Shown one piece after another: positions 10,701-63,145 of a stretch of 64,000 bases of DNA. The stretch's first letter is position 1. Each line of letters starts with the position of its first letter. The stretch spans positions 744,001 to 808,000 of the forward strand of contig JAQGDQ010000038.1 in the NCBI GenBank assembly GCA_030141605.1. The letters are read 5' to 3'. The position numbers and the translations under genes were made by a program. This stretch comes from Tubiluchus corallicola (taxonomy: Eukaryota > Animalia > Priapulida). The notes below the pieces were generated by a model. The model did no database searches. It had not been told where the DNA came from and saw nothing but the letters and a program-made list of their open reading frames with translations.

Positions 10701-12415
10701 ATTTTTTTGGGTTTAATAGGTTTCAGTTGGCGTCTGCTCTTATTGCTATCGCCATCTTCTCCTCTCCGTGCCAGTCCAGTGAAGAACACTGTACCTTCTT
10801 CTGACACTAAAAGAGCATGCTGTCCGTCATGACCGACAGCACAATGTACAATTTTTGGTGACTTTATAATGGGAAGTTCTGTCCATTTTGTTACTAAAGG
10901 TCCCCCTTGCTTAAGGCCAAGACTCTGTGGTTTACCTGTGAATAAAACTTTACCAGCCATCGTTCTTATCATGCTGAATTCTTTTCCCGAAACAACTTGT
11001 GCAATATCATCATCTTCCAATTGTACAGCAACAGGTCTGAGACCAGACTCGTCAGAAATGCTGCAGTAACCAAATGTATCTAAACACTTCCTGGCTAATT
11101 TTAAAGTAACTTCTCCCATACAGTGCATAGGAGCATGTGCTGGGCTAAACCAACGCACTACAAAGTTATCATTTCTGCTTGCAGCTATGTGACCTATACG
11201 TTCACCATCACTAAACATAATGTTTGGACCAAAGATATCTCCTTCAAGACTAATTCTTTCACCTTCTTTAAGAGTTTCTCTATCAATTACTGTTAAAGTG
11301 CTATACTTCTGATCTAACACTTTGTAAAACAACTGACCTTTAGCGAAAGCCAGCCAGCCAGGACTACCATTGTTAAAAATACTTCGGCAAAGATATACAT
11401 GTCCTTTAATCGTTCCTCCATAGCCAGACCCAACTTTAAATAAACCTTGTGAGCTGGCAACATACAGAAACCTGCCATCACTTGCCAGTGCACTATGAAG
11501 CTTGTTGTTTTCTTTCTTTTCTGTTGCTTTTGTTGGTACACAAAGATGGATAGTATCAACAAGTGATTTCTGTCTGATACCATAAGTAAGCCAGTCAGGT
11601 TTGAATGTATTGCCCAGCAAAACAGCATGAATACTTCTTTGTAAAGAAGACAAAATTCCAGGTAACTTTATTACCTGGCAGTTTAAGCTAGTTTGGCTCA
11701 TCAGTAAAGCCGAAGAAGCCTGGAGCATCTTGCCCGTATCACCCCTAGCAACAACCAGACTAAGTAAACAAGCACATGCGAGTGATGTCAGTGTGTCGAC
11801 ATGAGATGCTGGAGACGGTGTTGTTGCAATATTAAGCAAAGAGTCAAATAGGCTATTAATTACATCATTTGGTTCAGATTTTAGTCCTTCTGGCTGCTGT
11901 CCTTGTAGCAGATCTAGTAAGGCCTGGAGAGCTCGAGCACATAAACTTGGGTGGCTTGTACGAGATTCATGTATTAGTTCAAATACACTACATAAACCAA
12001 TTCCAACGACTTTCGCTATTTGAATGGGTTCTTTTACTTGATTATCTTCATCTGCATCAGAATCAGCTTGTAAATCGCTGGTAGTTGATAAATATATGTT
12101 AGCAGAATCTTTAACTTGTCTTTCTAATATGGCTAGCCTGATTCGCCAGTAAACTGCAAACAGTGAAGGGTTGACTGCAAGGTCAATAACAGGTGCCAAA
12201 GACCTACTAAAGTCATGTTCGGCAACTTTCTTCTTTTCGTTGCTCTTGTAAGAATATTTGTTTCTTTTGGGTGACCTTTTTGCTTTCTTTTTGAACTTGC
12301 TGTCAGAATTTTTGAAGAGCTCCAAAAATTCTGCTTGCATATCTTCAGCTTTCTTCTTAGAAAGAAATGCCGATGGATTTAAAAATGATGCTTTTACTGC
12401 ACTCTCTACTCCCAT
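1..12415 (-). CDS. MYCBP2: PHR-family E3 ubiquitin ligase (MYCBP2/Highwire/RPM-1), 5' part; gene continues beyond the left edge
   Basis: Exons 12415-7355, 6810-6653, 6360-4527, 2450-2268 and 1754-<1, with GT-AG boundaries and consistent phases. Contains RCC1-like repeats (VYSFGVNNKGQCG, VYAFGNGQYGQLG), PHR domains (NRFESYGGGWGYSGHS..SKKSNNGTDVNAGQIPQLLY; RSWNTGNGSPDAVCF), SGGRLARWLQPDSYVDP, a filamin-like region, and AGLRVRMNPSLQSEQIG / EAWALQYNQHLGKTLLVP. The first in-frame ATG is 12415; the ORF track start at 12442 is a TTG. Confidence 0.95.
2474..3570. mobile_element. Non-autonomous DNA transposon/MITE (~1.1 kb), family copy 1
   Basis: Terminal inverted repeats TAGACTAGATGAA ... TTCTTCTAGTCTA, plus longer imperfect subterminal inverted repeats. 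A related copy lies at 54322-55304. Confidence 0.7.
4527..6360 (-). CDS. MYCBP2: MYCBP2 coding exon 3 (end of PHR2, RAE1-binding and filamin-like region)
   Basis: Acceptor TTTTCAG|A at 6360, donor AAG|GTATCT at 4527; lies within ORF 4512..6401. Confidence 0.9.
7355..12415 (-). CDS. MYCBP2: MYCBP2 giant first coding exon (~5.06 kb; RCC1-like domain and PHR1)
   Basis: Uninterrupted ORF 7289..12442 in the track; donor GAT|GTAAGT at 7355/7354. Confidence 0.93.
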
Positions 12416-15199
12416 TGCACTTGCCACGATATCTTCAGTCAAGGCATGTCAGTGATGTCAGCATTCCTATAAAATAATATAGCAACATTAGAATGCCAAA
12501 AGATTTTGCAACTGCACACATCTGATTTAAAGTAAATTTGCAGACAGTTTTATAGAGTGAGTCTTCTGCCAAAACAAGTGCTCTATCAACAACCTATTTT
12601 ATCGATTTATATTAAAACTGAGTCTGCTCTAATACAAAACACAATTTCTTGAACTTTTACGAAATTGCAGCACCAGAAAAACGGTTGCCAAAAACTTTGC
12701 ATTGGGCAACTAACTGTAAAAAAATTAATAATTTAATTTTATGAACATTATTTTCCAGCAACCAAGCAATGTCTTTGAAATATATAACTGATGCCTGAAA
12801 CAACACATTTCTATGCTTGGAAATCTTAAAATGGAGATTTTTCAAACATTTTGTTCGAACAGCACACTGCTAATTTATGGGTCATGAAAGTTCTTGCCAA
12901 CTTGTCATTGTTGTAATTCTCCTTTAGAACATTTGACCAACTAAATTACAAGTTTTCTGTTTGACAACTTGTTACCTATTGTTTGCCATAGACCATAGAA
13001 TTTATATTAGAACATGGTGCCCATTGTGGCTTCATTTTTGTGCAAGGCTAGCAATCTCCCTGTGCACATGTGTGGCGTTTAAATGAATGCCTATCACACA
13101 ACATTAGTGTACTGCTAGCAATAACAACTTACAATTAAGGTAGTTAAAGGTACATAATTATTCAAATCAAATCTATTTATCTCTGCCATAAAAACAAACA
13201 TATTGACATACAAGTATAATCCACCTAAATTGGAAGGGGTGACAAAAAAACATGATGTTACTGAATCAGCCACCCCACAATTAATTCAAACTTATTCAAC
13301 ATACTGCAAAACAGACTATCGGATGTTTTTTCTCAGAAAAATATTACAAATCATTAACAACAAAAAATAAATAAAAAAATCAACATGCAAAAATAGACAC
13401 GGATTTGTAGAGTAAACATTACAAAATATCATGTCAGTAAATAAATAGAAAAATATAATTCTCAAGCAAATCATGCTATAATACTGTGTATGCTAAACTA
13501 TACACAGGTAATTTTTCATTAATGAAAAAAGTGAACACTACAAAAAACTGTCATCAGGCAATTGTACAATGTAAATTAAAATTCAATATGCTCAAACAAA
13601 AAATAATAAAGAAAATGTCATGCAATTAAATAAATGCTAAGTGCCTTAGATTTTTCACATATTTAGTAGACATTTGTAGAAGCTAATAAATTCCTTTTTT
13701 AATGTTATCCTGCATACATCTAGTAGACAATTTTTGGGAATTCGGCCGTTTACTGCATCATCCTTTTATTTTCATTCTTTCCAATTAAGTCCAATCGAAT
13801 TGTAATTGCATTTACAATTGGACCGACGGTAACCTTAACTGTCATTTCGTATTGTTTAAATGTTAGTAACGGGCCGTATCATTTTATCAATAACTTATCT
13901 TCGGCAAAAAGAATCGCGTCAAATCGTTATTGCACCGCTGGATTCGTATCGTCTAACATCACTGGGCTAGATACACTAGTTCAAAATTCCATTAACATGT
14001 GAATTTAAATAAGCATTATATCAAGCAATAACAAAAACAGCATGTCAAACCTTAGCCTAGATTAGCACTCAACTTCAACAACTAAGCAGTAGACTTTGAA
14101 GACCAGTCAACGAACTTTTCATACAATCGATTTTTAGAAAACTTCCTAGAAAATCAGCACCAAATGTCTCTGCGTTTGGTTTCTTTTGTGGATATCAGTG
14201 CTTTTAAACGCAACCCATTTTTACAGATTTCGTGCTAATCTGACAGGACGCCGTCACGCTCATGTAAGGTTCTGGCGATAAATAATGAATGCAGCTTGCT
14301 AGCTCGGCGAATGCACCGATTCTAGTATAAATTTGTGATCTAATGTGCTTTTGTTTTATTTGCAGTTACCAATACTATAATGCCTTGCATCAACTACTGC
14401 AATCGATACTGAGTATTATAGGCAAAAACTTGCTAAACAGTGCATTGCATGTGGAAATTTTTTAATGACATTGCTAGGTCGGTACAAAAACAACAAGCAA
14501 TACAGTACAGAACAATTTATTACATCAGACTACTACTGAAACAATAGGAAAACCACAATGCCTCAGAATCTAGTATCAAAGCTTCGGATGTCTTCCACAG
14601 CCTACAAACATGAAAAGTGTGTTTGGAGCAGCGAGTTCGAACCTCTGAAATTGATTTTGTTTTTGATTGCACTGAATGACGTTGAAATTCATCTCAATCT
14701 AGCACATTGGTGTTACTTGGAAAGACAAAGTGAATGCCTATAGATCATCCTAAAATATGCTGCTACTGATGTACAATCGTGTATTTGAATTGCTGTGATA
14801 TTATGTAATAGCTGTTTTGTCTAAATAAAATGAACTTGAATTTAGGTGACAATATGCAGACCGTGCATGGAAAATTGGACATGCGCAGATGAGCGTTTTG
14901 CTATACCCTGCATGAAAATGGTAATAACAAGATCAAAACCCGGCAATGACAAATATTATTGTCAATATGAATGACGGTGGTCATAATGGTGGACTCTGCA
15001 AATTTAGTTAAATCGGTTGAAAATTTTATTAATCAGTAAATTTAAACCCAGTCATTGAATGCATAAAATGGGAGAAAATGAATAAAAAATTAAAGCCCCA
15101 CCCCACACAATGCATGCCAAGTGCTATTTGTGTATCATCTGTCAATCCAAGAATGAAAAATGAAGATATGAAACTGAAAGGTAAAAAGTAAACAATATA

Positions 15200-30093: not shown

Positions 30094-30449
30094 GTCACAT
30101 AAATTTTGTTCCATAATTGGGTGACATTCAGTGTTAATGTGGAGCAGTGTAAAGACTCTCCAAATTGCAATCTCAGCCCAACTTAGTCTGTTCTAGTAAT
30201 AAATCTAACGGGAGCAATTTTGTAGAGATTAATGGACAAGACCTAACAACACTCTAACTCACTGCTAACTTGACACACAAACCATGGGACTTTGGGACTG
30301 TTGGACCTCAAGGCTTGGGTAGCCCGAAATAGAAGGTTGTCCAGTCTCAACATAGCAACCATTGAGTACCACTGAGAAGGCAGTGTATCAGCCTTTTTAT
30401 AACTTTCAGATGTCTTCAGATAACCATTTTCGTTTTACCGCAGCTATAC

Positions 30450-30457
30450 GTGCAGCT

Positions 30458-30488
<31 letters not shown>

Positions 30489-30600
30489 TTGCTGTCGCTG
30501 TCGTTGATGTTGTTGTCGTTATGCTATCATTGCTATCAGTAGCATCATTGTTGATCATTGCGGGTATTGTTGTCATTATCACTGTTATTGCTATTGTGGC
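30450..30600. repeat. Degenerate (GCT/GTT)n trinucleotide repeat
   Basis: gctgctgctgttgttgttgttgttgctgctgctgttgctgtcgctgtcgttgatgttgttgtc. Confidence 0.85.
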
Positions 30601-30719
30601 TAACATAAACGCCGTTGCAAACAAAATAAGATATTTCATTTCAGAGGTTTCATACTTTCCTGCCCTCGGCAATGTTAAACTCTTAACTTATTAAATTAAT
30701 AAGTCAATAGGTTTAATAC

Positions 30720-34781: not shown

Positions 34782-37700
34782 CTATACAGGAGTGATACAC
34801 TTTAATTCCTCTTGTTCATCTTCATCCTCATTTTCTGTTAGTAAGAGAGGCCGATTTCCAGTGCTCTCGCTAGACGTTGAGGGAGTAGTTGATCGAGGTA
34901 GACCCATCACAGCATGGCGACCTAGTAACTCATAATTTGGAGTTCTCACGGAAGCTGTCGTCGCCCTGCCCGAAATCACACTTTTTTCAGAAGTGCCTGT
35001 GATGCTCTTCCTTTTTGGAGAAGACCATGCCTTCCAGCTTCCTTTAAAACCTCTGCTGCTACTGCTTTCTGGTCTGTCTACTTTTGGAGTGAATCTCAAG
35101 CTCTTTACACTATTAAAATAGAAAAAAAATTAAAGAAGATATTAATTTAACTGACAATGCATGGAAAAATATACGTAGTAATTTCTATGCTCACTTGAAG
35201 TTAACGTTAATTTTTAACTTTCAACAAAATAACATTGTACCAACTGCAGAACACTGTACAATAATAAGACACTTACGAAATGAGTAATTCTTTTAACAAA
35301 TCTGTATATTCTTTGTATTCTTTAATACCAAATTCCTGAAAATCAAACATAACATTAAACCTTATATAATGATGTTACAATATCTAAAAAGTACTTTAAA
35401 TAAACCAAGCTTGATTTCAATGCATGGCATTATTAGAATATAAGAAAAAACTTTAGCTAGCATGATCTATCTCTTCCGCTGCACATTTGGTTCATTTGGT
35501 AATAAAAAAATTAGCAAGAATTTCTTATTCAGCACAAAAGCTAATACACTAATAATTCATTTTAGAAAATGAAAATTACACTAATGAATATATATGGCTC
35601 ACTTTGCACAAGCTAAAAATGTACCTATGAATGTGATATTACACTTCTAAAGGATGTTTAGAAGAACTGGTTGTCGCATTTTAGAACAACAGTGAATACT
35701 ACATGAATTTTCAACTCCATACTTGAGCAGTCATATCTCAATGACTTCACGATTTTGAGTCCTGACTTTCAAGATTTTTTTACCCCATAGAGAATCGTGT
35801 TTGACTTGTCAAATTTACTGTTATCCAGGCACATAATGCTGTCACGGCCAGAAAACTTCAACCATCAGTGACACTGTACCTATGAGCGGTGAACATTTGA
35901 GGTCATAGAATTAATTAGGGGTAATAAATGATCTTTCACATTAAATGTAGAAAGCCTTGTCCTGGTCGACGGATTTGACTGCAAATGTTAAAACGCTAAT
36001 TAAGCAAATAGTGAAAAGCAAACATTTTCTTTACTTTTGCAATTTCTATTCAAAAATCGTAAAACCACAGAACATACTGCAGGATCGTGTCTAGCATCTT
36101 CATACAGCTGTGCTAATCTTGCTACTGAATGGGGATTTGCTTTGCGCAAAGCATCTTTCTGTAATCCCAGCAGAAACATGTGCATACTCTTGCCAGGCTT
36201 CCGGTGAATCCGATGATCATAATCTCGTAATTCTTTGTCTGGAAAATTAAGAACAAACACATCAACAGTGAATGCTTATTAAAGTAAATGCCAACTTGAA
36301 ATGATGGCACATCAAGGTAAATAAGAGCTCTTGAAGTGCAAAATACTTATTAGGCCCAATAAGTTAAAATGTTCCTTACTAAAACTAGTCAAGAAGCATG
36401 TGTGAACAAGTAAATTCTCTAAAATACATCATCAGTAATTTGCAGAATGAGTCCAAGATCACGTAATGTTGCCCAACCAATCTGAATAATTAGCATAAAA
36501 GCTACTGTCCAAATGGAATCTCAAGTGATTTGTCAGATGATCAAGTTAGACCAAAGACTAAAACTTGCAAATGGGATAGTGATTCTGTTAATACAGTAGC
36601 ATTTGATACGTACCTAATAATGAAAATGAATCGATGGCTTTCATCCGATAACAGAAACTGAAGTTTTCTGCAACAAAGACATAAAGAGATGCTACAAATA
36701 TGAAATGAAATGCTAAATGGAAAATAATTGCGGATTTCTGACATAGTCCTATCCCTCCCTGATGCAAACTCAGTGCAAAATCATTGCCAAACGTTTAACA
36801 ATTTCTCGACATAACTGCATAATGTAAGTTAAGATACAGTTTAAATTTGCTTAGATAAATCAACTACACTTCATATCAGCAAGGCCAACTAGCTAATGAG
36901 AATTACACAATAAACATATAAGTTAAGAAACAATAAACAATTAAGGAACTTGTATGAAATATTTTATTGACCGTGAAAAAACCAAGACTTCTGATCCAAT
37001 TCCAGTTGCAAGCAGTTAATCTCTAACAATAAAGTTAGTTTTAAATGTCAATATGAAAAAATTGCTGGAGATCAATAAAAAAAGAGAAAAATAATCTTGA
37101 CTTTTTCATTTCCAAATTTATCATGTCAGTAATGATTAATATTAGTCATATACCTAAAGCTGAAGGATCATCCATGTTGGCAGACACATTACTAAAAAGT
37201 TTTGGTTCGTATTTCACTTTTTGGGTACGATCCATTCTTCGATAAATTTCTTCAATTAAGTTCTAGAAATTAATTAGACATACAGTTATATATACTAATT
37301 TATTAACAGACTAAATCATGTTTCTGGTTTTGGATGTAAAGTTGGGGACACCTATACAAGTGCAGTCAGCTATGCCGATGACTTAACACTGTCTGCACCC
37401 AGTGTTTGCGCCCTTCAAAATACGCTAACTTTTTTTAATTTTTGCTTTAAAGTTTATGATTTGGGTGCTCAGAAATGCCAAGTTCTAGGGCATTAATTTG
37501 CTTCCTAGATCCTGCCAGAGGCAGAATGATTCCTAGTCTTTCTATGTTTCACACTCATTATTACATCAAATGGTTGGCAGGTTTGCAGCACTTAATAAAG
37601 TAGACTTGCATGCATCATAACATACCTTTGGTGCCTCAAAGCCTATCGGAACATGTGGACCTTTTCGAGATTTTAGTGCAAAGCGCATGATTTGCCTTTT

Positions 37701-47600: not shown

Positions 47601-48551
47601 TTGTTAGGCGTATTCCATCACCTTTTAGGTAACTGCTGATATTGAAAAATTTGAAAATTCTTACCTGTTGTTGATGGGCAATTGTTTGTTTGATCAGTAC
47701 ATGTTTGATGCTCTGTTCCATGGCATACTTTTTAGCTTTTTTCACAAATTCATTTTGCTCTGTGTTCAGTTTGGGGGCTGGTGTTAACAGAGGTAGATCT
47801 TTTTTTGCACCAGAGCCTGCTAAAACTTGCCCAATCTGAAATCAAACAAATCAAAATAATAAGAAAAGGTTATGCCAAAAGATGAACATATTATGAAAAT
47901 TAGAATTCCAAGCACAAAATTTATGCTAATCAGGGAACAGCATTTCATCAGATTTCTTCCAAAAGCCTGGTGAAACAAAATAAAACACAATAGAAATAAG
48001 TACATTTTCAAGATTCAGTTTACAAAAAAATAAATATTAGGCATCAAATTCAGAATGACAATTGGATTCGATGTTAATGAAAATTAGTCTCACTAAAACA
48101 ACAGTAAACAAACAGTCAACTATGATTAAAAATAAATATTGTTATGGGGGCCAAATGCCATTTATTTTCGAACATCTTCTAACTTGTGAATGACTAGTCT
48201 GTGTGAAGCCATTGCATTGAATACTAGGTATAAAATCATCATTATGGAGTAGCCTGGTCGATTCAGTAGATGAACAGGCCAGGCGTTTTTAACATCTCAG
48301 CACCTGTTCCATTCTTGTCAACCAGCATGAAGTACATGAGATAGATTTCTGGCAAGCCTCCTTTTAAATTTCGACTTCCAGATTCTCTGCATATCAGTAC
48401 CATCGTAAACAACATGAATTTTATTTATTCGACAAAATTGCACACGGACATTAACTATAGCAGATGCAGAAAAGTCTGAAGAGAGCACTAACCTGTTCTT
48501 GTTCAGGCAGAGGAGAGTGACTGCGGAACGCTCCAATTGCAGGAGGATCGC
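41671..48551 (-). CDS. PUF60: Poly(U)-binding splicing factor PUF60 / half-pint / rnp-6, conserved core (RRM1, RRM2, UHM)
   Basis: Exons 48551-48493, 47835-47665, 47226-47180, 46431-46218, 45420-45293, 45024-44956, 44529-44427, 44031-43903, 43487-43196, 42947-42760, 42281-42092 and 41780-41671 (TAA). Motifs: [122 protein letters not shown]. Confidence 0.95.
46590..46897. mobile_element. Possible Tc1/mariner-like MITE relic in a PUF60 intron
   Basis: The right end reads TACAGGGTCGTCCAAAAG on the minus strand (TA + CAGGGT, mariner-type); the left end is degenerate. Confidence 0.4.
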
Positions 48552-51418
48552 CTGCAAAGAAAAAACAAACATCAGCACCGAGCTGTATCAAAATAGGAAT
48601 TACAGTTTTCTTTGCCAAGTTCACCTTTAACAACTACATGCAAAGTGCAAGCAAACAACATCAGTTACATAAATACTGTACAAAACATTGCACATCGTTT
48701 TCCATACGTGAGCTGTATATGTTTAGCAAAAACCTCAGAAATTCAAGATATTTATATCTTATTTTGTACATAACCTGATGATTATGGGTTGGTCACAGGA
48801 CCTGTGCATCTTTCGTGACCAGCAACACCAACGGCTACAACCACGATCAAGACATGCTGAGGTGTGCCCATACACATCCTCCAGACTAAGGGTCACATGT
48901 TCGTACACAAAAAAAGAGAAAAGCAATACGTGATTTACTGATTCAGATATCAAACTCAATTGATGCAAAAACTGAGTTCATTAATATTAAATTGTCTTTA
49001 TACTTACAAGACAGCTAGTGCACAGCATTTAACCTAGATATTATTTTTATTTTAGTGATCAGTTACTGATAAATATGAAATGGCCATTTATTTAACAAGC
49101 TACTGTTACTAAAAGTAAAGGAAAGTGACTAAAATACTGAATGTGCTAAAAAGAATAGCTAAAAGTTAGCACTTTCCTGAAAATTAAATTTGTATTATTC
49201 AGAAAAATTTCCATCTTGAAAATCAAAACAAAAGTCATCACAAGCTCCTTAGTACTAATAGCAGTACGTAATTAAGTATTGCATTCTATTCTATAATATG
49301 AAACTACCCGAATTCGCCGTTTGTCAAATGTTTTGCTGGTGTCTGTAAAGCACATACAAAAAAGATAAGCATCTATTGTGAATATATATTACGAGCAAAA
49401 TTAGTAAATGTGTTCTGTTCACTCAGGGTACTTATTTCCATATTGTTTTATGAAATATAAAGGCAACAAATGAACCCAAGTAACTAATACAAATTATCGT
49501 CGTGTAGTCCTGTGCCAAGAGTTACTCTGAGCTTGCAAAACCTACAAAATGGAAAAATAACTACACCCAAATATTAATTTCACAACTTAAGCTAGAATAT
49601 CACTACTAATATCACTTAAGAGTGATAATCTCAATTTATACAAATTTTTGCTAGCCCGACAACATCTTACAAACCCCTGCACTGAGCTATAGAATGTCAC
49701 ATTGTTCATGAAATGCTGCACAAAGTTCAAACATTACACCCAGATGTGTGAAACACTGGTCAACAGAAAATGTTTGACTATAAAATGCCTGCAAAACACA
49801 GACAACTAAAGACATTAATTGTACCAGCAAATCTAATAAAAGTGCATGGCTAAGTTGTTTAAAATAAAATTGGTCAAAGTTTAGGCCAATGAAATCGAAG
49901 AAACACTAAAATGTTTACTTAAAGGTTGATCAGAAACTGCTTTACGAGTCCATGTGCAAACTTACGGCTTTATCTGCAAAACACTATTAAAAACATGGCC
50001 ACCATTAACCAATAATTCAAATGACAGCATCAAGGAGATATTCATTGCCACCAAGTAATCCATAATGTTAATAAACTAAACAAAAACCAGCTAATTATAA
50101 TTTTATTCTATATCCAAGAGAGATGAACTTGCAGTAACTTGGTTTCGTTACACTTAAGCTAGCATAGATTCACATTTGCCAAACTTATGAACGAACTCGT
50201 TTACCACTTTCTTACTGAAGTCACCTAAAATAAAAATCACAGTAGAACAGAAATTCATCCTGGATATTCATTCATCTCTAAGACTTGCACTGCGTGCACA
50301 CAAACACACGCATGGCCACACACATTACACACACTCCTCATTTATAATAGTTAAACAAAGATAATTTTATGAGTAAAATTTCTCATATTGTTTCATTGCA
50401 ATAGTATATCAAGGTCGCAGTAAACTTACAAAGCACAGCCAATAAAGCACAAAAGCAGATGTAAATTTTGATGTAAATTTACAAACTAGAAATTGTTCCA
50501 AGCACTCTACATGTAAGGAAAAGTAACACAAGTAACAAGAAAAGTAAAGACCACGCCGAAAAATGATTTAAAAAAGTCATCTGTTCTGATTTCGCTTTAA
50601 AGAGACATCACTCACTTTAGGACCAGCACTTATACTATTGGGCATGGGCTGACTCTTCAAGGTTCTGTTACTCCAATGCCTGCAAAATGAATCAAAATAT
50701 CCCATATGCGACGATATGGACTGTAACACCTGACAGAAATAACAACTTCCTACTGACTCTATTCATTTGTTAACATTTTCTGTACCTTATAATTGAATTT
50801 TCTAATTATATTAGGTGGATAAATCTTTGCTGCTGCAAGTACTATTACATATATTATACAATATCACATTATCCCGAAGAACTTTTAATAATTCAAGCAA
50901 TGCCCAACAAGCTTGATGTCTAGAACTTCTGAAAAACAGCAGACGAAATGTAAAATGTCACCAGTAAATTAAACATAAAACATGACAACCCAAAACTAAC
51001 TTATTTAAGATAATAATATATGCAGTTTACAGTTATCCAGTAAGTCTATGAGATAAAACGACAATCTCTTGGAACGCCATTCACAACTAGTCCCTTGACA
51101 CTTAGAACTCTGCAAGATACAAAAACCGACAAAACAATGCACACTTTTCCATCTAAGAATACCAAGAGATGTTGAACAGTCAATTAAATCTCATGTCCCA
51201 AAATTAACGTGATTAGTTAAACGTTTCCTCAGGTGCAGTCGAACTTGCATGAATCAGATATATTACAAAACTGCGACAGAAAATAACGAACCACCTCTTC
51301 ATCAATTCTGATACAAACACAGTCTTTCTGAAACACCAAGAAAAGTAGCACAGCACCATTAGGGTAAACAGCACAAACTAAAACAGCATGATACAAAATT
51401 TGTCAGTTCAGTTATAAT

Positions 51419-51823
51419 TAGGGTCCCACAGAATTTTAAAATAAATTTCCCCGACTTTCCCATGATTTTTTTCCCTGACCAAATATTGATTTTCAATGAC
51501 CTAGATAAGCAGAAATTACATACCGGTATACATATTAAAGCATTATAGGCAATCATACATATACTGATATATAATGTGTCGGCCAATCATTATTTTTGGA
51601 ACAGAAATCAAAACTGTGAGCCTGGCATAGCAAAATTTTATTTAAACACGAATCGCTGAAAAACATCGGTTCATGGTGATTATTTTAGCAACCCATTCCA
51701 TTTTCCCTGTTCACCCCATTCCATTGTCAACCCATTTTTACCAAATTATCTTTTTCCCTGATTTTTCCACAACTTTCCAGGAGCCCGTATTTTTCAGGAT
51801 TTTCCCTGACCATGGGAACCCTG
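51419..51823. mobile_element. hAT-like MITE
   Basis: TIRs TAGGGTCCCA ... TGGGAACCCTG with repeated TTTCCCTGA subterminal motifs. Confidence 0.65.
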
Positions 51824-52119
51824 AAGTTACTAAAACCTCATAAGCAGTCTTCGACAAGTCCGCAGATGCAATACTGTACACAGTTTCCTGATAACAATGT
51901 ATATCTGTTGATAACAACTGCTTCCTAGCTCTCAAGTCACATTGATAACAAAATGCCTATATGCGAACATCACTATATTCATTTATGCACTTTTTACATA
52001 AGTGAAACTAAAGTGAATAGCTAATGATAGTCCAAATATACATACGTGTTTTGTCTAATTACATCACATGGATGTCAGTACCTACAAAAGAAATGCGAAA
52101 GTAGTCGGAGGCACGAAAA

Positions 52120-52830
52120 CGTGGATGGCTGACCTATGCAGGCAATGCACGATGTTTAGTGCTTCTGCAAAACGGAGACAACAAAAAAAGAAAAAAAAGA
52201 AATACAAATATCATAAATAGTGGCAGCAAATTCAGAATAACTAAATATCTTTGAGGTTTGATTAGTTTAGTGAGGAAGTTATGACGTATCTTAAAATGCG
52301 ACAAGACAGAAAAATCTTCATTTGAAACATGATGTATGATTAATTAATCATGAAACGCTTGTCCTGACCACCGCAATCACTGTGCAGTATCCTGCCGGAT
52401 CCCTGAGTGCTTAAGTTGTTTTTTCCTGGAAAGCAGCAGAAAAGAAAGACATCCAATGCAGCCAAGACTAGTATAATAATAAATCACCAATAGCTTTGCT
52501 AACAATATTAGATATAGTGGAATACGTTGAACATAACTAAAATATGTTACATGGTTATGACTGGCATAAATTCCATCTCTGATCGATGCTTGGAAAGTTT
52601 GTTTACGTGCTTTTTGATTTCTTTTATACGGAACACATTTCCCTGGAACAATGAGAAAGGCAGGGCACATTCATTAAATTAAAATAATGTGCAGATTATG
52701 AAACCAGTTCTGTATTTATCAGCCCAGTTACTTTCACAAAGAATATGATAGAGACACACAAACTAATACGCATGCTTACACAAATCCACCTGTAAGACAC
52801 ATATATGATTATGCTAAGAGACTGGTATAA
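52120..52830. repeat. Diverged ~700-bp local duplication of 55790-56460
   Basis: Collinear shared blocks: gcttctgcaaaac, aaattcagaat, gacaagacagaaaa, cgcttgtcct, atgcagccaa, atattagatata, atgactggca, tatacggaa, atcagcccagttactttcacaaag. Confidence 0.8.
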
Positions 52831-53599
52831 TGGCTTGAAGAATTTGCATGAACTAAGATTTATTACTAAATCAGAGCTGCTGCTGAGACTTACGACGAAC
52901 CAACTCTTCACCAATTCTGATATAAAAACATAGTCCATCTGAAACATCGAGAAAAGTAGCACAGCACCATTATGACAAAACAGCGCAAACTAAAAAACAA
53001 GCTACACAATTCACAAGTTCAGTTATTCATATCTCACAAACATTCTCCAAAAGATCAACAAGAGTATTATTATATATACATAGGCAAAACCTTAGATTAT
53101 CATCCATGACTCCATTTGATTATATTACACTGTGCAGTAAGAGATCAAATGTTTTAACTATGACTTTGAATGGTTCCTGGTAAGATTACTGCAGTGTTCT
53201 TGCATTTCTTGTGAAATGATTCAATCAGCAACAGTCTGCAAAACACAGACAACAAAACACAAGTGCAAAATCTTTTCACAAACAATGTTTAAATAAATTT
53301 TGAATTTATTACAAACTTATTTAAAAATTAATGTCTGATGCGCGAAAAAATGTTATTCTTTAGAGGCTTTCAAAACCAGAGAAAAGCAAAAAGATACGCA
53401 AATATTGTCTATTTTGACTGTGGTTATAAGTAACAGCACAATAGGAAAATGTATAAGTGCTGACAGGAGTTGCTTCCTTAATTTCTACGACACCGAGAAT
53501 TTATTCATAAAACGATACAAAATGCCCCTACACAAAGACATAGCCTACCAAGTGTGCAAAAATGTCCACTTATCAATCACTTAAGCACGTTTTAAATAA

Positions 53600-56000
53600 C
53601 TGAAATTAAAGTGAATAGCTAATGATAGTCCAAATGATAGTCCTATAATACACACCTTGTCTAATCTCATCATGTGGATGTTTTGTCTGTTGTTACAGTA
53701 GAATTTCAAACCTTGTAAAAGGCATAAAAAAGTCACTGAATTCTCAATGCAGGAAACACATGTCAAATGCTTCTGCAAAACACAGACAACAACAAAAAAT
53801 ACTTTTTAAAGGCATCCAATTTAATATAAAAAAAACCTTTGTTGCCCAGCGAATGTTCACGCATCCTAAGCCAATAGAAAGACAGAGAAGCCTCCATTTG
53901 TAACACGACGTAAAATTAAGCAATACATAAAATTGTGGATATAGCCATATGCAGGAAATGCATGATGTCTAATGTTTCTGCAAAACACAGAGAAAAAAGA
54001 AAACAAACAAACAAATATACAGCATCAAATTTAATATAAAAGAAACCTCTGAAGCTCAGATACATTCATGAGTCCAACGACAGTGGCAAGACAGAAAAGT
54101 CTTCATTTGTAACATGATGTTGAAGCTTGTGCACTATACAAAAATGTGGATGGTGTGGCCATACAGGAAACATACGATGTCTAATACTTCTGCAAAACAC
54201 AGACAATAACAAAAAGAGAAAGAGGAAGTCGTATCACATCAATTAAATGCAAAAAAAGAAATCTATGAGGTATGGCTAGGTCGGCCAAGTTAATATTCAA
54301 GGTGAGTCCAACAGTGACCAATAGACTAGACGAATCTTTAGAAAAGTGGAACTTTGTAGACGTTTTTTCTAAGTCAGCAACACAGCTAGTCTTATCAATT
54401 TGACTAGGTTGAATCAAAAAAACTGTTGTGCCAACTTGGAAAATTAGCAGAAAAGTGTCAAAATGTAAGGAAACAAAATGGCTACAAACCAAAAGACATT
54501 CAAAGAAAATTAAAATTTATAGGCAATTATGAGACATGTCCCAAAGTAGTTGGATACCCAAGAATCCATTTCTCTTATTGGATTATTTCAAAATGACCAC
54601 CAGACAAATGCCCATCATGCAATTATTTTTATTAATTCCACCTGAAGAATTTAAAAATCTGCTATTAAGCCCCAAAAAAGATGCAAAGTGACTTTAACAG
54701 TCCAATAAGCAAAAACAAAATGGCCACCAGGCTCATAGCATATCATGACACAGTCTAGGTGAATGATGAAAAACTTGCTCATTTTGCACAAAACTTATGA
54801 AACTTTGCACAAGCCAATTAAATTTACATATGCGGCTAATCGAAAATCAACGAATATGGCTGCCGTTTTAAGATGACCAAAGGCGGCGGTTGTTTTTCTC
54901 TGGATTGTTTAAGACACTCTGCATTTTTTAATGGTCGAATTAGTAAAAATAATTTGCCCTTTGTTTTGTAATAAACTTTTAGGCGAAATCGTTAATATGA
55001 TTACATGATCGGTGTAGTTTTGTTTCTCGTGGTGGCCATTTTACCCTGGAACATATATCATAAATGCCTGTTAATATTAATTTTCTACGAATTTCTTTTG
55101 ATTTATGTAGTTTGTACAACGATTGGTGGCCATTTTGATTTCGATTTTTTGACCCCTTTCTGCTAATTTTTTGAACTGGCAACAGTTTTTTGCGGTTTCA
55201 TAGTCAAACTGATAAGACTGGCCACATTTATCACTTTTGTAAAAAAAATGACCCGGAACGTAGGAGCGCCTTTTCAGGATCTTTTCAGGATTTTCTTCCA
55301 GTCTGCAGACAGAAAAGCCTTCACTTGAAATAGGATGTTAAACCTTGCATAAGGCAAAAAACGTGGATGGCTTCCCTTTTGTGCAGGCATGATGTCTAAT
55401 GTTTCTGCAAAATATAGACAAAAAAAAGAAAAACAAATGTCATACCACAATGTCAAATTTAATATAAAAAGGAACCTTTCAATCTCGGCTAATCTTCATG
55501 AGTCCAAGGACAAAGCAAGACAGAAACGCCTTCATTTGTAACACAATGTCAGAGCTTGTGCAAGGCATAAAAGTGTAAACGAATGCCCAATGCAGAAAAC
55601 ACACGATGTCTAATGCTTCTGCAAAACACAGACGAGAAAAAAGAAAAACAAAATTTAATGTAAAAAAGAAACCTACAAAGCTTGGCTAGGTCAGTCAAGG
55701 TAATATTTAGATTGAGTGCAAGAGCGACTATAGCGAGCAGCCTTCACTTGAAACAGGGTGTCGAACCTTGTGCAATGCACGACAACATAGATGGCTGCCC
55801 TGTGCAGAAAATGCATGTTTAGTGCTTCTGCAAAACACAGACATCAAAAAAGAAAAAAATGTCATATTATGGCAGGAAATTCAGAATGATTTCTGCAGCT
55901 TAGCTATATCAGTCAAGATAATAGTTACGACGAGCTCCAAGACAGTGACAAGACAGAAAAGCCTTCATTTCAAATACAATGAAAAATTATTTAGTCACTA
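53600..56000 (-). repeat. ~210-bp tandem array of 3'-splice-site-containing units (6 copies, split by a MITE)
   Basis: Core plus-strand motif TTCTGCAAAACACAGAC (minus GTCTGTGTTTTGCAG|AA) with AG at 53773, 53978, 54190, 55405, 55619 and 55828. Spacings are 205, 212, 1215 (including a 983-bp insertion), 214 and 209. Confidence 0.85.
54322..55304. mobile_element. Non-autonomous DNA transposon/MITE, family copy 2, inserted into the tandem array
   Basis: Ends TAGACTAGACGAA ... TTCTTCCAGTCT; shares agctagtct..aatttga..aaaaaactgtt..gaaaagtgtcaaaa with 2474-3570. The flanks rejoin into one array unit (gagtccaacagtgac|agacagaaaagccttcac). Confidence 0.7.
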
Positions 56001-57083
56001 AGCGCTTGTCCTTCTGACCACCTCAGCCATTTTGAACCATTCTGCACTGGATTCCTAAGTGCTTTTGGGTTTTATCTGCAAAACATCCAAAAAGAAAAAT
56101 ATCCCATGCAGCCAAAAAACTTGTAAAATAATAAATGATCAGTTTTTTTGTCAACAAATATTAGATATACTGGTCTATCCTGTACACAACCAAAATACAT
56201 TACACATCCATGACTGGCACAATTTCCATCTCTCACTTGGAAGTTTGCGTTTACCTGTTTCTTATTGTTCTCTATACGGAATATAACCATCTGGAAAAAC
56301 GAGAAAAGTAGCAAATAACTGTCAAAAAACTGTGTGCAGATAATGAAATAAGTTCCATCAGCCCAGTTACTTTCACAAAGCAAATTTCACAGACACATAA
56401 ATTGATATACCCGCCTGTATAATTCCAGCTGCCACAGATATGTGATTGTGCTAAGACTTTACTTGTCAGTGTGTCCCAGTATCATGCCTAAGTGACGCAT
56501 TTAGTATGTCTTAACGATACAAAAGTGAGAATAGCATTCTTCATTCTAGAAACAGTCTAGAAAACACAAAACACAGAACACAAAACATATGCAAATCAGT
56601 CTGCGCAGAGGAACATCTATGCCAGTCTTGTTACTGACCTGGTATCAGAAAATGATATTATACTAAAGGACATTTCGCTTGAAATATTGCACAAGTAGCA
56701 AAATAATATCCAAATTTATCTACCTAGAGCATTATAGACATTCACACTCTCTAAGAATAAATAACACTCAATAGGGATAAATGTCAAGACTTGCACAAAA
56801 TAAACCTGAAATTTCGCAAACATCAGTTAGAAATTATAACAAAATATCTGAGTACTTCTTCTCAAGAATGTGATATGATTTCGTGCATTGCATATTAGTT
56901 TCGATCAGGTACAATACATCTAGTCAGTAATGTCACGCAACTAATTAAGAATTACGTGCAAATAACGATCTAACATTAAATATTGGACATCTTTCTCTAC
57001 TTTCCTTATTTTAATCAACTTATTTTGTTATTTTATTTTATTATCATTATATTTATTATTTTATTTTTATTTACTAAGTTTAA

Positions 57084-57165
57084 GGTACCATAATAAACAG
57101 CTAATATTCGGAAAGGGTTTAAGGCAGGGTACCATAATAAACAGCTAATATTCGGAAAAGGTTTA
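57084..57165. repeat. 44-bp tandem duplication
   Basis: ggtaccataataaacagctaatattcggaaa occurs at 57084 and 57128. Confidence 0.85.
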
Positions 57166-60095
57166 ATGAAGGTTTGTCCTGTTAGCAAATCAGTAATTAC
57201 ATTTGTATTTATTACTAATGCATGTATGATTGTAATGTTTTCTTCAAATAAAATAATGTCTGAATAAATAAAGAGTAACTCAACTACATGTACTTCTGTA
57301 ATAGCAACATTAATCTTCAGACACTAAGTTTTTGAAGCAATATTCAACCAAAAAGGAAAATGGGAAAATTCAAAATTATTAAATCGAAGACTTTGATATG
57401 TATGTCCAAGAGCTGAAAAACTGTTATAACATCCAGTTCTTCATGATTATGATCACTTTCAGTTATCCTATAAAGGCTCAATGGCAGCAAAACTTTTCAC
57501 ATGAAGCCTGGAGACCTAGGTTGTGATGATGAAGATACTGTATGATTAACACTGAAACTAAGAATGCAAAAATTGTAAATTCAAAAATGTAGTTTCTAAC
57601 TTGTATGCCATTAGTTACTATTAAATTAAGACAGGAAGTGTCAGACTGCGAGGAAGCCAGTATTATCGTACAATAAAACCATTTATTGGCCGAAGGAAAT
57701 GGTATTATCTGCTTAATAACATAAATAATTTTACAAGTGATTTTTAAGGCAAAGGCGAGTTTTAAGCTTTTCAAATTTCCTTTTTCACTTATAAAATTCA
57801 GTCTTAAAAAATTGAAGTTGATTTAATCAGTCAACTAATTTAGTAAAAAAGCTCTTACATTGTTATAAAAACCACGGCTACTCAGTGAAACTATACAAGA
57901 CTGACCAAGACATAAATATGGCTGCCCAAGAGACAAGCGTAGCACTTCTACAAAACACAGAAACAAATAAAGTAGTAAGTCATCACTATCATAAAATGTA
58001 AAAAAATTTCAGCTGAGGCTAGTTTTGTAAACAATAAAATACATCTAACTTCAGGAAAATTTATGAAACTAAAAGAAAGCCTTTCCTTGAGGAAAAATTT
58101 CCACAATCTAGATACAGATAATAATTCATGATTATGTTCTTTCCAGCATTTGTGTAAATCAAATAGTTTAGCAATATTGCACCTGCAACAGCATGACGGT
58201 TTGTAAGCATGTTCATTTTATCTGCAAAAGACTCACAAAAACCCATATAGTGTTGTAAATTTTTAGATTCTTATGTGTTTTGGCATCATTGTTATAGTTT
58301 TTTAGATTCTGGTAGAAGAAATAAATCATTTTCAGATGTAGATAATTTGCAACAAAAATTTCATGATTCCATGAAGAAAGAGATCGTGCCGAACAACTCA
58401 ACTGATTTACCTCTCCCGAATTGATCTATTCATACTGCTTGAACTGTATTGAAGCTAATGCATTATAAACGGTATTATAAACGAGGGATTTTAATTTCTC
58501 GACAAAGTGTCAACCACTTTAAATTGCATAATTCAGCCAAATGTGTGCTTGCATATTGTGCCAAACAATAGTAGGACTGCCTATTTAATGGATTTTATTA
58601 GGCTGTTCAAGCATTTATAAACATTGGTATTTTTAAATCAGCAGAATGTACAACACAAGCAGCATGATAACTGACTCAATAACTGTAGCAAATTAAAAGA
58701 TCTTTTATCAAGCAAATATGCACCACAAAATTAATTCAAAACATTAGTAGTGAAAACAGCTAGCTAGGTACAATAATAGTAAGCACTCAAAGTTTGAGAA
58801 AAGTACTAAAATGTAGCTTGGATAAGTGAATAACCAACTAAATTAACAAATTCCCCATCCGTTACACATCCCCATCCCCATAATTTATTTCATCCTATAG
58901 ATTCGCATGTGTAACACACACTAAGCAAAATGAATAGTAGCGTGTAAGTTACATATTAGAGAATATATATTTCTTAAGCTAAAGATTATAGTCAGCAATC
59001 ACCAAACTTACATAAAATAACACTCAGATCAGTCCTCACAGGCGGCAATAAGCTCAGTTAAGTTAAAAACAGTCTGCAAAACCCAGTCACATGCACCAAT
59101 TGGTCAAACGCAGTCACATGAACCACATTTGCTCTTATTACAAAAATTACACACCTACCAAAGTTCTAATTAAAGGAAAACCAGATGATTGTGTAAATAT
59201 TAGTTCAGAATAAAGAATGCTCTAAAATATTGAAAACTACAACAGCTTCTTTTAAATCAAAGCTTAGATTAAATAATAAAAATAATAATTACCTCGGATA
59301 CTCAAATTTCGTTAAACTTTCAAAGCTATATGCGGCTCAGTGAATCTACTAAGATTGGCAGCAGCACCTTTTTGTCGCATACACATGGCCGACAAATAGA
59401 AGGCAGTACCATGATAAGCATGATCATGAACTGCAGTGTTAGTTTCTGACATCATATGATGTAAAGCCCATTTTTCGTGACATCATGCATTTAAGCAGTA
59501 CTGTAACACTTATGCAAATGTGCTTGACGTGCAAAGGAAGATGTCTGCCATTGCAAAAACTGTGGTTAGTTTCTGACGTAAGCAGCTGTGTTCAGTTGCC
59601 GTTAATTAACTTTCTAAGCTAATTATTCAAATATAAGGAACAATTGTTAACTTTTATAGGCAAGAAAATACATATTTTGGACAGTAAATTAAAATGAGAT
59701 TGAGTCTAAACAATCGTCCGGTCTTCCTTTAAGTAATGTTTCGCCTTGTAAATGTCTGAACACGTGCTAGCAAATTGTTATTGTTTAAAAAACTACTATT
59801 TAAATAAAGAGAAAGATTTCTAAATGAAAATTATCTGTTGTTGCAGTCCATTCTGATTTCTGGTTCCAAGTAAAATTGGTAACAAGAGTTACCTGTTCAA
59901 CTCCTGTAATATATAGAATCTGCAAAATGTAAAATAGAAGCCAAATCCAAAGATATGGCCTACAATTTAAGTGTGAGAGAAGTTTTGCTCTGCTATTACA
60001 CTAAGTGTTTTTCTCTATAATATCATTAAATACATACACCAAAGATTATTAAAAAAACCTAAAAATAATCAGGCAACAAAGTTAACAAATATTAC

Positions 60096-62315
60096 CTGGA
60101 TGATTTTCACCATGTATAAGCTTTGCTAGAGTTGGATCTATTGGAAGTTCAAAAGAAGGCTGCTGCATATTTACAGGTGGTGGTGCTGCAGGTGCTTGCA
60201 CAATAGCAGCACTCACAACTGACTGCATTGGCAGCGGTGGTTGGCTACCAGGTACAACCGATGCTGGTAGTGGAGGCGGTAATCTCGACACTGGGGTACT
60301 TGATGATAGCTGACCCGATGGTGGCTGCGGTCCAGTTGTTGCAGGCGGTGGACAGAAACTCTGCATAGGAAGAGGAGCAGATGGATAGGGTGGAGCCCCG
60401 GTGGGAGGAAGGGATCTGTTGGGATGTCTGACAATAGAAGAGGATAAGTTAGATGCATTGGCATTAGGAGGAGGAGGAGGACCAGGAGCAGGGGGAGGGG
60501 GAGGTGGCATACGTTGGCCAAATGACAGAGTTGGTTGTGACATAGGTGGCGGAGGGGGTGGTTGTCTAGGATGCTGCTGTCCAGGAAAATCTCCTAAACC
60601 TGGAACCTAAGAAATAAGAAGAATGTTTTAAATGTTAAGCACAGTTCACATGAGTAACTGTCGGATGAATCATTTACACGACTAGATAAAATCGAATGGA
60701 GTCTTGCAGCTTCGATTCAGACCCGACAAAGTTCTATTTTAACTGCTTTGGATTCAATTCAGTTTCCATAGAAAAATGCGAAGCAGTCTTCATAATTCGT
60801 GTAAAGGAATTACTCAGTTTAAGTTGCAAATCTGCAGTCAAATAGTGCTGCTTCAGAACTACTAGTAAATTTCCACCTAAGATTTAAATTATTTTAGTTC
60901 AGTTAGTTTAGTTTAGTAGTAGATCTTCGCTGACGTAGTTCGAGAACTTTGTAATTCATTATTAATGACAATTGATATTAATACTTAAAACATTACTGTG
61001 GCACGTGGAATTGACCGGTAGGAAGATGAAGTATCAAGTGATTTACCAGGCTTGTTGGCCGAAATTGTAGGGTGCCAGGCACGCCACTAGCCGAAGTAGG
61101 ACACTTTCGCTAAACTGCATGTGCAAAATTTGAGGAAAAGCAGTGTCGTACATGGGCAGCCCAAGTAGGGCACTGGCGATTTCTGTCGAGAATAGAGAAT
61201 TATGACATAATAAAACATAAAACTAAATTTGTTTTAGAAAAAAGTAACTTTATAATAATGATGGATAGTCCTTGATAATTTACAAATGTATTTTTTGCAA
61301 TAATATCATCATAATGCTTTAAAGAGAGAAACTATGTAGCGCATAGCTCGCTAGCCCTTTTACTAAGTACAAAACAATTATTTGTCCAAAAGGTAATGAA
61401 ACGGATCACCTGTCTGTGAAGCAAGACAAAATAATAAATGACATACATTAGACAAATGTTGGAATCGCCTAGAAAGCGGGCTTATTTCACTTCAAAAAGA
61501 TTAATATCGAAGCCAAATTTAATAATGGCCATTCTCCTAGCTCAGAATAAAATCCTTTTATTTTATCCATTGCATAATAAATCATTCAACCTGTATTGAG
61601 ACTTTCAATTATTATTATTAAATAAACGAAGACAACGGACACTGCCAGAGTACTGTTAGCAACTCAATTCGCGGGCTAGCCTACGTACGACACGTCCTAC
61701 TTGGGCTAGCCTATGTACACCAGTTGTCCTTCGGCTAATGTCCTACTTCTCTCCCAACAGAAGTGTCTTTATATATAAACACAAAAAAATTGTTTCGGAA
61801 CTTTTATTATTTTTTGTGTTTACCACATAGTGTAATACTAGTAATAGATTAATTTATTCACATCCATTAGTACATAAAATCACATTCATTAAAAAAATAA
61901 AAATACAATACAATTACTAGCATACCACATAATTAGCACTTAGTAAGATGTGCAGGAGGACACAGAGCAAAACTACTTGCATGTGTGTCGAATTTAAGAA
62001 ACCTTGTTAATCAATATGTTCAAGTCTTAGTTTTACGAAATAACTTAACATTTGCAGCAGTAACTAATGCCGAACCATTTACAGAAGCAGGCAATGAGTT
62101 CCATATTTGAACAACCACTCATCATGATCAAATAAGAACAACACTCCAAAGATTAACATAACAACATTTAACGGAAAATCGGTATCATCGTGTATTATTA
62201 ATGTATGTTACGTTAATAATATTTAACGTTAATTCCATTAACAAACAAATCAATAAATCACGATACTTACTGGAAATTCTCCATCTTGCGCCAACGCAGA
62301 AGCAGAGAAAAACAT
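60096..62315 (-). CDS. PUF60: Probable 5' exons of PUF60 (proline-rich N-terminal extension)
   Basis: Exon 60606-60096 (TTAG|GTT ... CCAG|GTAATA) is open and Pro-rich, and ends in phase 1, matching the phase-1 acceptor at 48551 (ENHPG-DPPAIG). A candidate first exon is 62315-62271 (MFFSASALAQDGEFP|GTAAGT, phase 0). The start codon is uncertain. Confidence 0.6.
61020..61754. mobile_element. Probable MITE with inverted subterminal repeats
   Basis: tagccgaagtaggaca / gcccaagtagg near 61090-61170 are inverted relative to cctacttgggc / ttcggcta / tgtcctacttc near 61695-61750. Confidence 0.5.
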
Positions 62316-63145
62316 TGAACGATGCATATTCATATTTACTGGGCCAATTTTTCTAAATATTAAAAATTCGCGAAACTTCTTCGGATTTCTGACAGAGAAG
62401 TGAACGACTGAAACGTTCACCAGGCGCAACAGCCCGATCATTTAAATTAAATTCAACTTATTTGCAACCAACATACGGCCACAGTTGACGAACTCAAGCG
62501 GCTGAGCCCCGCGTCGTACACGAGGTGTAGTGGAACATCCAATAGCATAATTACGTAGATCTGGAAGAGCTATAGAAATGAATCTTCAACATAATGATAC
62601 TTGAAATGTATACATGGTTATATATTATTATTACATGTGTAAATTTTCATATCATTTGCAAACATCATAATTTTTATAGTAGCACACGTTTTGACTTTGC
62701 TTTACATGTGCTTAGTGGGTTTGGTCAAGCAAAAGAACTAGGGAATATTGTTTGATCAAGAACGTAGATTAAATAAAAAATAATTAAGCTGATTAATCTG
62801 CAATAAAGAAAGTCTTATACGAGTAATAATACTACTGAATAGTGATCGTAATTACTGTAATTCTAGATTTCTGGATAGGCCCTACTTCTCTCCTTGAAAT
62901 GAAACGTTGTGAAATTATTCATAAATTGGTGCCCTTCTAGGCTACACCATAGAATAGAATTTTCATACATTTGATACATGTAATATTGCAACATTGAACA
63001 TTGTTATAGTTGTTAGTTAGTAGCAATTAATTTCAATTGGTGGGTATCAATTGTCCAATGACATTACACCCATTCTTCTGTGCATGCTATTTGCATGCTG
63101 TTTCAAACATTTTAATGATAAAGAACATATGGATGAATTGCTGAA

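Follow-up and report, generated by a model that had tools for sequence, protein, structure and literature searches.

Intron 2 of the PUF60 gene of the priapulid Tubiluchus corallicola carries about 30 acceptor-like sites on its sense strand; this acceptor excess is real, and the duplicated unit is specific to the locus. The intron lies in a 64,000-nucleotide (nt) stretch of contig JAQGDQ010000038.1 (positions 744,001 to 808,000), referred to here as the window and used for all coordinates. The favoured reading, to which a probability of about 0.5 is assigned, is that intron 2 acts as a feedback switch, in which the mostly donor-less acceptors and a stop-containing candidate exon would limit PUF60 output via unproductive splicing.

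The PUF60 gene and its second intron

The minus-strand gene at 41.7-62.3 kb was identified as PUF60 from its RRM1 exon, whose best matches among PUF60/half pint proteins reach 99%. Its 14 exons join into an open frame of 757 codons. Intron 2, with a GT donor at 60095, is 11,544 nt long, against 246-1,663 nt for each of the remaining 12 introns. Priapulus caudatus PUF60 was the top overall match among ten proteins tested (summed 946 bits; runner-up 832), and it alone matched across the entire exon 3. The first base of exon 3 is 48551 and the AG of its acceptor ends at 48552; this acceptor has a pure U tract, an AG followed by G, and a strong donor downstream. The Pro-rich N-terminus encoded by exon 2 is 170 residues long and found no match in the annotated Priapulus caudatus protein or in Pfam. 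A hidden coding or first exon inside intron 2 was considered and rejected, as no match was found to the N-termini of those retrieved PUF60 proteins in which the anchor motif is present.

Sense-strand acceptors are in excess in intron 2

A first-pass annotation of the window had listed 25 AG positions in intron 2 as acceptors, and all 25 proved to be the G of a minus-strand YAG behind a U- or UG-rich tract. The sense-strand excess also holds in a strand-wise comparison with other introns: by a tract score, intron 2 has 30 sites on the sense strand and 3 on the antisense strand, and the counts over 6.4 kb of the other introns are 4 and 3, respectively. The score was trained only on the 13 genuine PUF60 acceptors; no homologue was found for an exocyst-like neighbour gene. 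The control that stands in for the whole genome consists of the other genes of the window, whose acceptor counts include genuine acceptors, together with contig depth in sequencing run X1.

Of the motif TTTTGCAG, intron 2 has 15 copies, all on the sense strand, while the other 52 kb of the window hold 3 sense and 4 antisense copies. The intron is U/G-biased on its sense strand overall (TTTG 184 sense versus 65 antisense), and dinucleotide shuffles were therefore made within 100-nt blocks, which retain the local strand bias; 100 such shuffles gave a mean of 1.07 copies and a maximum of 6. With the strand bias itself as the null, the placement of 15 of 15 copies on the sense strand has p=0.011. 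The 15 copies are not independent, and after collapse to four lineages the excess still gives p=0.02. In addition, TTTG-YAG is found 20 times on the sense strand (the genuine exon-3 site excluded) and once on the antisense strand. Of the 183 sense TTTG in intron 2, 20 run on into YAG, a rate about three times that of the remainder of the window (36 of 1,032; p=7e-5). TGTGT is likewise skewed, with 45 sense and 11 antisense copies. Tandem Repeats Finder does not detect the acceptor array.

Among the 13 genuine acceptors, that of exon 3 is alone in ending in TTTG-YAG and also scores highest for its tract, so that the decoys resemble the very acceptor they precede. They differ from it in being without its +1 G and downstream donor. 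The sites can also be compared with the RBM39 RRM2 consensus reported in part of PMC10477243, N(G/U)NUUUG: followed by YAG, it fits 14 interior sites of intron 2, and no site on the antisense strand or in the 12 remaining introns. This agreement could point to the same decoy array being read by RBM39 or U2AF, resulting in cross-regulation of PUF60 and not autoregulation. Such a reading is improbable. The RBM39 motif abuts the AG, whereas one pyrimidine lies between them here, and the array sits in PUF60 itself, feedback by the gene's own product being the usual case for splicing factors according to passages of PMC6547761.

About half of the sites arose by tandem and block duplication

Many of the acceptors had been described in the first-pass annotation as evident paralogues. 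This stands for 16 of the 30 sites, which arose via tandem duplication of ∼210 nt and block duplication of 0.2-0.7 kb; the other ∼14 have no detectable similarity beyond the motif. Seven clear paralogues of the ∼210-nt A unit have acceptors at 55828, 55619, 55405, 54190, 53978, 53773 and 52165, and their bodies are 54-74% alike. The sites at 57948 and 50929 are older A copies, the latter being the only detectable A paralogue within the run of acceptors at the 3' end (profile E 2e-4). Two D-B-A blocks align at 69.5% over 725 nt (blastn, E 1e-72), with all three YAG retained in both. Once insertions are allowed for, the sites are spaced mostly 150-300 nt apart. A derivation of the A units from exon 3 was rejected, their similarity not exceeding the shuffle threshold. 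Coordinates are collected in Table 1.

Table 1. Features of the PUF60 locus discussed in the text (window coordinates).
Feature	Position	Strand	Remarks
PUF60 exon 1, coding part	62271..62333	-	Predicted start; phase 0 end; open frame with exons 2-14
PUF60 exon 2, Pro-rich	60096..60606	-	Phase-1 end; open frame; decoys would compete for its donor
PUF60 intron 2	48552..60095	-	∼30 sense-strand acceptor-like sites
Candidate 27-nt poison micro-exon behind AG 59920	59893..59919	-	Donor 8/9 to U1; stop at codon 8; sequence only
High-copy MITE-like element	59170..59733	.	Inverted arms; X1 contigs have loose ends and very high depth
Candidate 62-nt exon behind AG 59074	59012..59073	-	Donor 7/9; stop at codon 4; judged from sequence alone
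Oldest B-A module copy, acceptors 58222, 57948	57880..58300	-	Aligns to 56150-55740
D-B-A block, acceptors 56291, 56076, 55828	55777..56456	-	Paralogous to 52111-52819
Tandem A units, acceptors 55828, 55619, 55405	55299..55860	-	∼210 nt each; last one split by inserted element
Inverted-repeat transposable element inside A unit	54321..55298 (approximate ends)	.	Arms 54385-54548/55042-55222; raised X1 depth
Tandem A units, acceptors 54190, 53978, 53773, and tail of split unit	53698..54320	-	Repeat and profile comparison
E block, acceptor 52939	52840..53026	-	76.6% (blastn, 188 nt) to its paralogue at 51241-51415 with acceptor 51328
Second D-B-A block, acceptors 52642, 52426, 52165	52111..52819	-	Paralogous to 55777-56456
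Third multi-copy insertion	51430..51800 (approximate ends)	.	Raised contig depth in X1, X3
3' acceptor run 51110, 50929, 50680, 50225, 49974, 49789, 49542, 49343	49343..51110	-	Sequence motif
Single-copy conserved element with candidate 111-nt poison exon	48775..48915	-	AG 48886; exon 48885-48775; donor CAG/GTTATG
PUF60 exon 3	48493..48551	-	Matches Priapulus caudatus PUF60 residues 45-65

The units do not behave as a dispersed, randomly oriented repeat family, the outcome that the first-pass annotation had named as fatal to its proposal. A profile search found no A-unit copies elsewhere in the window. In the genomic contigs of X1, which may be the source sample, summed depth over the unit bins was at the baseline of 180-213, versus 987-850,736 over the insertions; this qualitative comparison uses contigs at ≥82%, from which older copies would escape, and it therefore argues against a family of close dispersed copies. 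Moreover, run X3, from another sample, carries 55495-56550, 53564-54566 and 49750-50271 nearly unchanged, and the array is therefore no assembly artefact. As to the insertions themselves, the inverted-repeat element at 54321-55298 and another at 2474-3529 in the MYCBP2 region belong to the same family and are ∼70% alike. Elements of very high copy number resembling miniature inverted-repeat transposable elements (MITEs), at 59170-59733, 61.0-61.7 kb and 51430-51800, are common to runs X3, X5 and X6.

Conservation is concentrated at the acceptors of the oldest family

Identity between the seven A copies reaches 0.91 at positions -15 to 0 relative to the acceptor, compared with 0.62 at +1 to +100. 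Ten consecutive bases across the AG are invariant, and no other invariant run exceeds three. In star-tree simulations a 10-base invariant run arose with P of 0 to 0.004 at 62-75% background identity; counting only four copies, P was 0.004-0.045, the highest value applying at 70% identity. The oldest B-A module shows the same pattern, with 0.81 identity in acceptor windows versus 0.65 outside. A search with a profile of just the unit body recovered, at E<1e-5, the seven training copies and two B-type bodies, each behind a YAG tract. This body-profile search yielded no unit bodies without such a tract, bar the tail of the unit split by the transposon. The claim that the acceptor is conserved beyond the rest of the unit is thus upheld for the seven-copy family and fails for two younger block duplications, which are considered below. 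Overall, the sequence comparisons support selection on the acceptors, though not uniformly.

The first-pass annotation had offered a second version of its proposal, in which the pre-mRNA would act as a sponge titrating PUF60/U2AF in trans. One RNA with many UG/U tracts might serve such a role, but the invariant part comprises the AG and its neighbours and not the tract alone, and ∼30 sites on one nascent RNA would be few against all the introns of the cell. This version found no support, and is hardly credible.

Most sites are orphan acceptors followed by stops

Behind the 30 sites, four donors have at least 7/9 matches to U1 and ten have 6/9, leaving 16 sites without a donor. An in-frame stop follows within 3-54 codons at 30/30 sites, a property that led to the rejection of an array of mutually exclusive coding exons of the Dscam type. 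AG directly before GT is found at only 3/30 sites (52790, 50225 and 49542) and A occupies +1 in 21/30, so that recursive (ratchet) splicing is excluded as a rule. The idea of a poison-exon array has to be divided: the tandem units are orphan acceptors, and the best poison-exon candidate is a separate, previously unlisted single-copy element at 48885-48775.

In the four intact A units ATTAAATT and AGGTT are invariant and form the best blocks after the acceptor; they provide a lead for possible weak donors or poly(A) signals. Last exons typically have acceptors without donors, and the units might accordingly be miniature terminal exons, each consisting of an acceptor, a stretch of ∼160 nt and a poly(A) signal, followed by a downstream element rich in U/GU that would also serve as the next tract, such that the mRNA would be cut before the RRMs. 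The invariance of both blocks in 4/4 units fits this arrangement. It is nevertheless quite unlikely, since AATAAA/ATTAAA is rarer on the sense than on the antisense strand of the intron as a whole (28 versus 45), and the conserved block lies in low-complexity sequence, is represented by four copies only and is absent from the B, C, D and E sites.

The regular 150-300-nt spacing, and the contigs of run X6 that cover parts of the intron, could also suggest a small non-coding RNA cluster, a separate nested transcript owning the acceptors, or trans-splicing. For the A acceptor, RNAalifold predicts a 12-pair hairpin. However, 0/12 pairs are compensated, z was 0.25 to -1.07 in nine copies, and the hairpin is no better than those of shuffles or genuine acceptors; masking of the A acceptor by this hairpin was rejected. 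An Rfam scan of the intron gave no match at the gathering score (best E 0.59), the fold of the 48.8-kb element was no better than shuffles (z 0.26), and donors are few. With neither an Rfam match nor a covarying conserved fold, an intronic snoRNA/miRNA cluster was also rejected. A literature search on spliced-leader trans-splicing in priapulids returned nothing on the topic by title. Taken together, a non-coding or nested RNA as the owner of the sites is very improbable.

A conserved candidate exon and probable RNA from a relative

In the phase-1 frame, the candidate exon 48885-48775 has an in-frame TAA at codon 35. It was compared with X6, which is probably RNA, is a single run available as contigs only, and was chosen by species label. 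Coding bases of X6 differ from the window by 5-13%, and its pieces end at splice sites (43904 and 48774), as spliced RNA is expected to do. Over exon 2 (60248-60413) there are 22 differences in 166 positions. X5 and X6, which bear the species label of X1, share almost no sequence words with the intron; their divergence under that label suggests cryptic species or loose labelling.

One X6 contig covers 48774-48915 with 4 differences in 142 positions (97% identical), compared with 39 in 472 over three coding pieces (p=0.024) and 10 in 37 in a unit body. The contig ends one base inside the GT at 48774, and exon 3 starts with the same base; moreover, the depth of the exon-3 bin in X6 corresponds to 61 nt at the depth of this contig. 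From the contig end and the depth arithmetic, we infer a splice from 48775 to exon 3 in X6. At its other end the contig begins 30 nt upstream of AG 48886, and so reads through it. A second contig, 55739-55850, has 13 differences, ten of them at +15 to +51, and reads through AG 55828. Both contigs are compatible with transcripts retaining upstream intron-2 sequence. Smaller X6 pieces lie at 49.4-50.7 and 52.1-53.4 kb. Contig depths (114.5 and 82.8 for the two intron contigs; 50-163 for exon pieces) cannot rank expression, and stretches without X6 cover are uninformative, having been removed by filters and divergence.

PUF60 loci of other animals

No meaningful sequence likeness to intron 2 or to the 48.8-kb element was found at 74 other PUF60-family loci. 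Acceptor motifs were counted upstream of the conserved exon at 24 of 34 loci examined, the ten dropped comprising seven without the anchor motif and three with <500 nt upstream; in most of the retained loci, the 2.5 kb before that exon may take in exon 1 or intergenic DNA. Locus L019, whose best match is a mollusc PUF60, has the orthologous phase-1 intron, and its flanking exons join in frame. In this 2.3-kb intron all 12 copies of TT[TGC]CAG are on the sense strand (mean 3.0 and maximum 8 in 300 shuffles; Poisson p=7e-5, or 0.002 after 24 tests), versus 14 sense and 9 antisense copies in downstream stretches. Two further loci are marginal, namely L002 (7 versus 1, p=0.04) and L063 (9 versus 5, p=0.03). 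At L027, a perfect 46-nt tandem duplication (1113-1204) with an acceptor-like motif lies ∼0.85 kb before the conserved exon of PUF60. By eye, L002 also has a long U/C/G tract, an AG and a donor-like site at ∼3100-3260, ∼1 kb before the orthologous exon, which is a candidate poison exon in another animal.

The L019 intron has its excess without any repeats. These loci give a lead that the array architecture predates the duplications of the Tubiluchus lineage. The phase-1 intron before the conserved PUF60 N-terminal exon may even be an old feedback sensor, so far overlooked, in several animal phyla, where the number of orphan 3' splice sites and not their sequence would be selected, and tandem duplication would have raised that number here. 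This broader reading is doubtful at present.

Evidence against the proposed feedback switch, and neutral accumulation as an alternative

Several observations weigh against the feedback switch. In the two younger duplications the acceptors are no better conserved than their flanks (64/83 versus 562/782, or 0.77 and 0.72; 27/40 versus 162/214, or 0.68 and 0.76); both nonetheless keep their YAGs. The sense bias of TGTGT is similar in other PUF60 introns (17 versus 8), and the array tolerates three insertions. In X6, the contrast between acceptor and body at unit 55828 is at most 3/30 versus 10/37 (p=0.12), and the 48774-48915 element does not stand apart from the two best-conserved coding pieces (p=0.24). 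Both X6 contigs of intron 2 run through AGs, which is compatible with retention and not with AG use. Junction reads onto the decoy AGs, as foreseen in the first-pass annotation, were not seen: among the junctions listed from run contigs, which were taken up by transposon junctions of X1, none leads from the exon-2 donor to a decoy AG. Among the other PUF60 loci, 21/24 are not enriched, L019 alone being clearly so beside the two marginal cases. Finally, no evidence here ties the sites to PUF60 over RBM39 or U2AF.

A rival is neutral accumulation, in which a U-rich stretch with a chance pseudo-acceptor would have been multiplied locally, in tandem and in blocks; its copies would be silent for want of donors, and only the 48.8-kb element would be functional. 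The paralogy of 16/30 sites and the general U/G sense bias of the intron agree with this, as do the donors, which are not enriched in intron 2 (10 sense versus 7 antisense), the younger duplications, the tolerated insertions and the lack of a decoy junction among those listed. Neutral accumulation is nonetheless rather unlikely, given the 10-base invariant run at the AG of copies that are elsewhere only 54-74% alike, the retention of YAG at every paralogous position, an excess that survives both local shuffling and lineage collapse, and the occurrence at L019 of an excess without duplications.

Other features of the window

The MYCBP2/Highwire gene (7289-12448 and 4512-6407, minus strand) contains very long open stretches of 1,719 and 631 codons; as the other genes have many short exons, heavy intron loss is suggested. 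In a quick tree of 25 rows, this MYCBP2 is sister to arthropods with support of 98; with the PUF60 match, this makes a priapulid or close ecdysozoan relative other than Priapulus caudatus the likely source on sequence grounds. A small Thr/Ala-rich, mucin-like open frame lies between two genes at 30409-30687 (minus strand), and an exon of the NICE-3 family at 36000-36272 (minus strand).

Relation to known systems and proposed mechanism

One close parallel is SF3B1 intron 4, described in passages of PMC6097662, where six unrelated short decoy exons each pair a 3' with a 5' site and function has been demonstrated; the same passages report that the OGT decoy requires both its 3' and its 5' site. 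As in SF3B1, a large intron (11,544 nt, hence >1 kb) of a splicing-factor gene holds internal splice-site motifs, here ∼30 acceptors. The likeness extends to several cryptic, stop-introducing sites, some of those in SF3B1 being highly conserved and, here, the 48774-48915 element; for the SF3B1 sites, engagement of flanking sites leading to retention or nonsense-mediated decay (NMD) has been proposed (PMC6097662). In contrast to SF3B1, the ∼30 sites are mostly without donors, half of them arose by tandem or block duplication, and their function would be deduced from sequence features. Paired 3' and 5' sites are found at few positions, such as 48885-48775 and 59919-59893, and the intron is therefore not classed as a member of the SF3B1 type.

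Two other systems resemble intron 2 in part. RBM39 RRM2 reads N(G/U)NUUUG at RBM39's own poison exon 2b (PMC10477243, in part), and the candidate cassette exon 48885-48775 (111 nt, premature stop at codon 35) would be of that kind. Exon 2b differs in being a single exon and no array, in the motif abutting the AG, and in its protein dependence having been demonstrated by knock-down and mutation. In caspase-2 In100, according to sections of PMC2082412, an intronic 3' acceptor serves as a decoy for the upstream donor and no exon is formed, much like the orphan intronic acceptors here (16/30 without a listed donor). That system is a single 100-nt element with PTB sites that promotes skipping of the upstream exon; it is unamplified and involves no splicing-factor feedback.

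According to parts of PMC6093180, human PUF60 has a preference for TGTGT and for tracts rich in UG, and the exons it activates have long U tracts. The intron-2 sites resemble such 3' splice sites in their long U-rich tracts, UG-rich part and TGTGT, and differ in that the UG-rich part adjoins the AG, whereas in human sites it lies 5' of the C/U part, near the branch point. The term 'autoregul' is absent from the main text of PMC6093180. In the open literature (Creative Commons PMC and bioRxiv texts, supplements apart), no splicing feedback was found for PUF60, half pint or RNP-6, including in term look-ups of PMC10154236, PMC7332298 and PMC12841381, the last of which mentions, in the parts matched, only a promoter-level loop. 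The same literature yielded no paper on a decoy array made by duplication.

For the feedback switch, we infer the identity of the factor, the direction of the response and the decay of the RNA. At low PUF60, the exon-3 acceptor alone would be recognised and full-length mRNA would be produced. At high PUF60, U2 would be loaded on the upstream G-interrupted tracts, 21/30 of which have the weaker AG followed by A, and the loaded decoys would capture or stall the exon-2 donor. The product would retain the intron fully or partly, or would include a long exon with stops that ends at the 48775 donor, and this unproductive RNA would be cleared by nuclear retention or NMD. Extra copies would tune the gain of the switch.

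PUF60 is dosage-sensitive in humans. At the Tubiluchus locus, paralogous acceptors of several ages form a natural series beside one conserved exon. The locus thereby bears on two questions, namely whether weak 3' splice sites allow PUF60 to sense itself and whether the gain depends on the number of decoys. If an old sensor in the phase-1 intron proved true, it would supply the autoregulation by splicing that PUF60 has so far lacked, in the form of a rheostat based on splice-site copy number.

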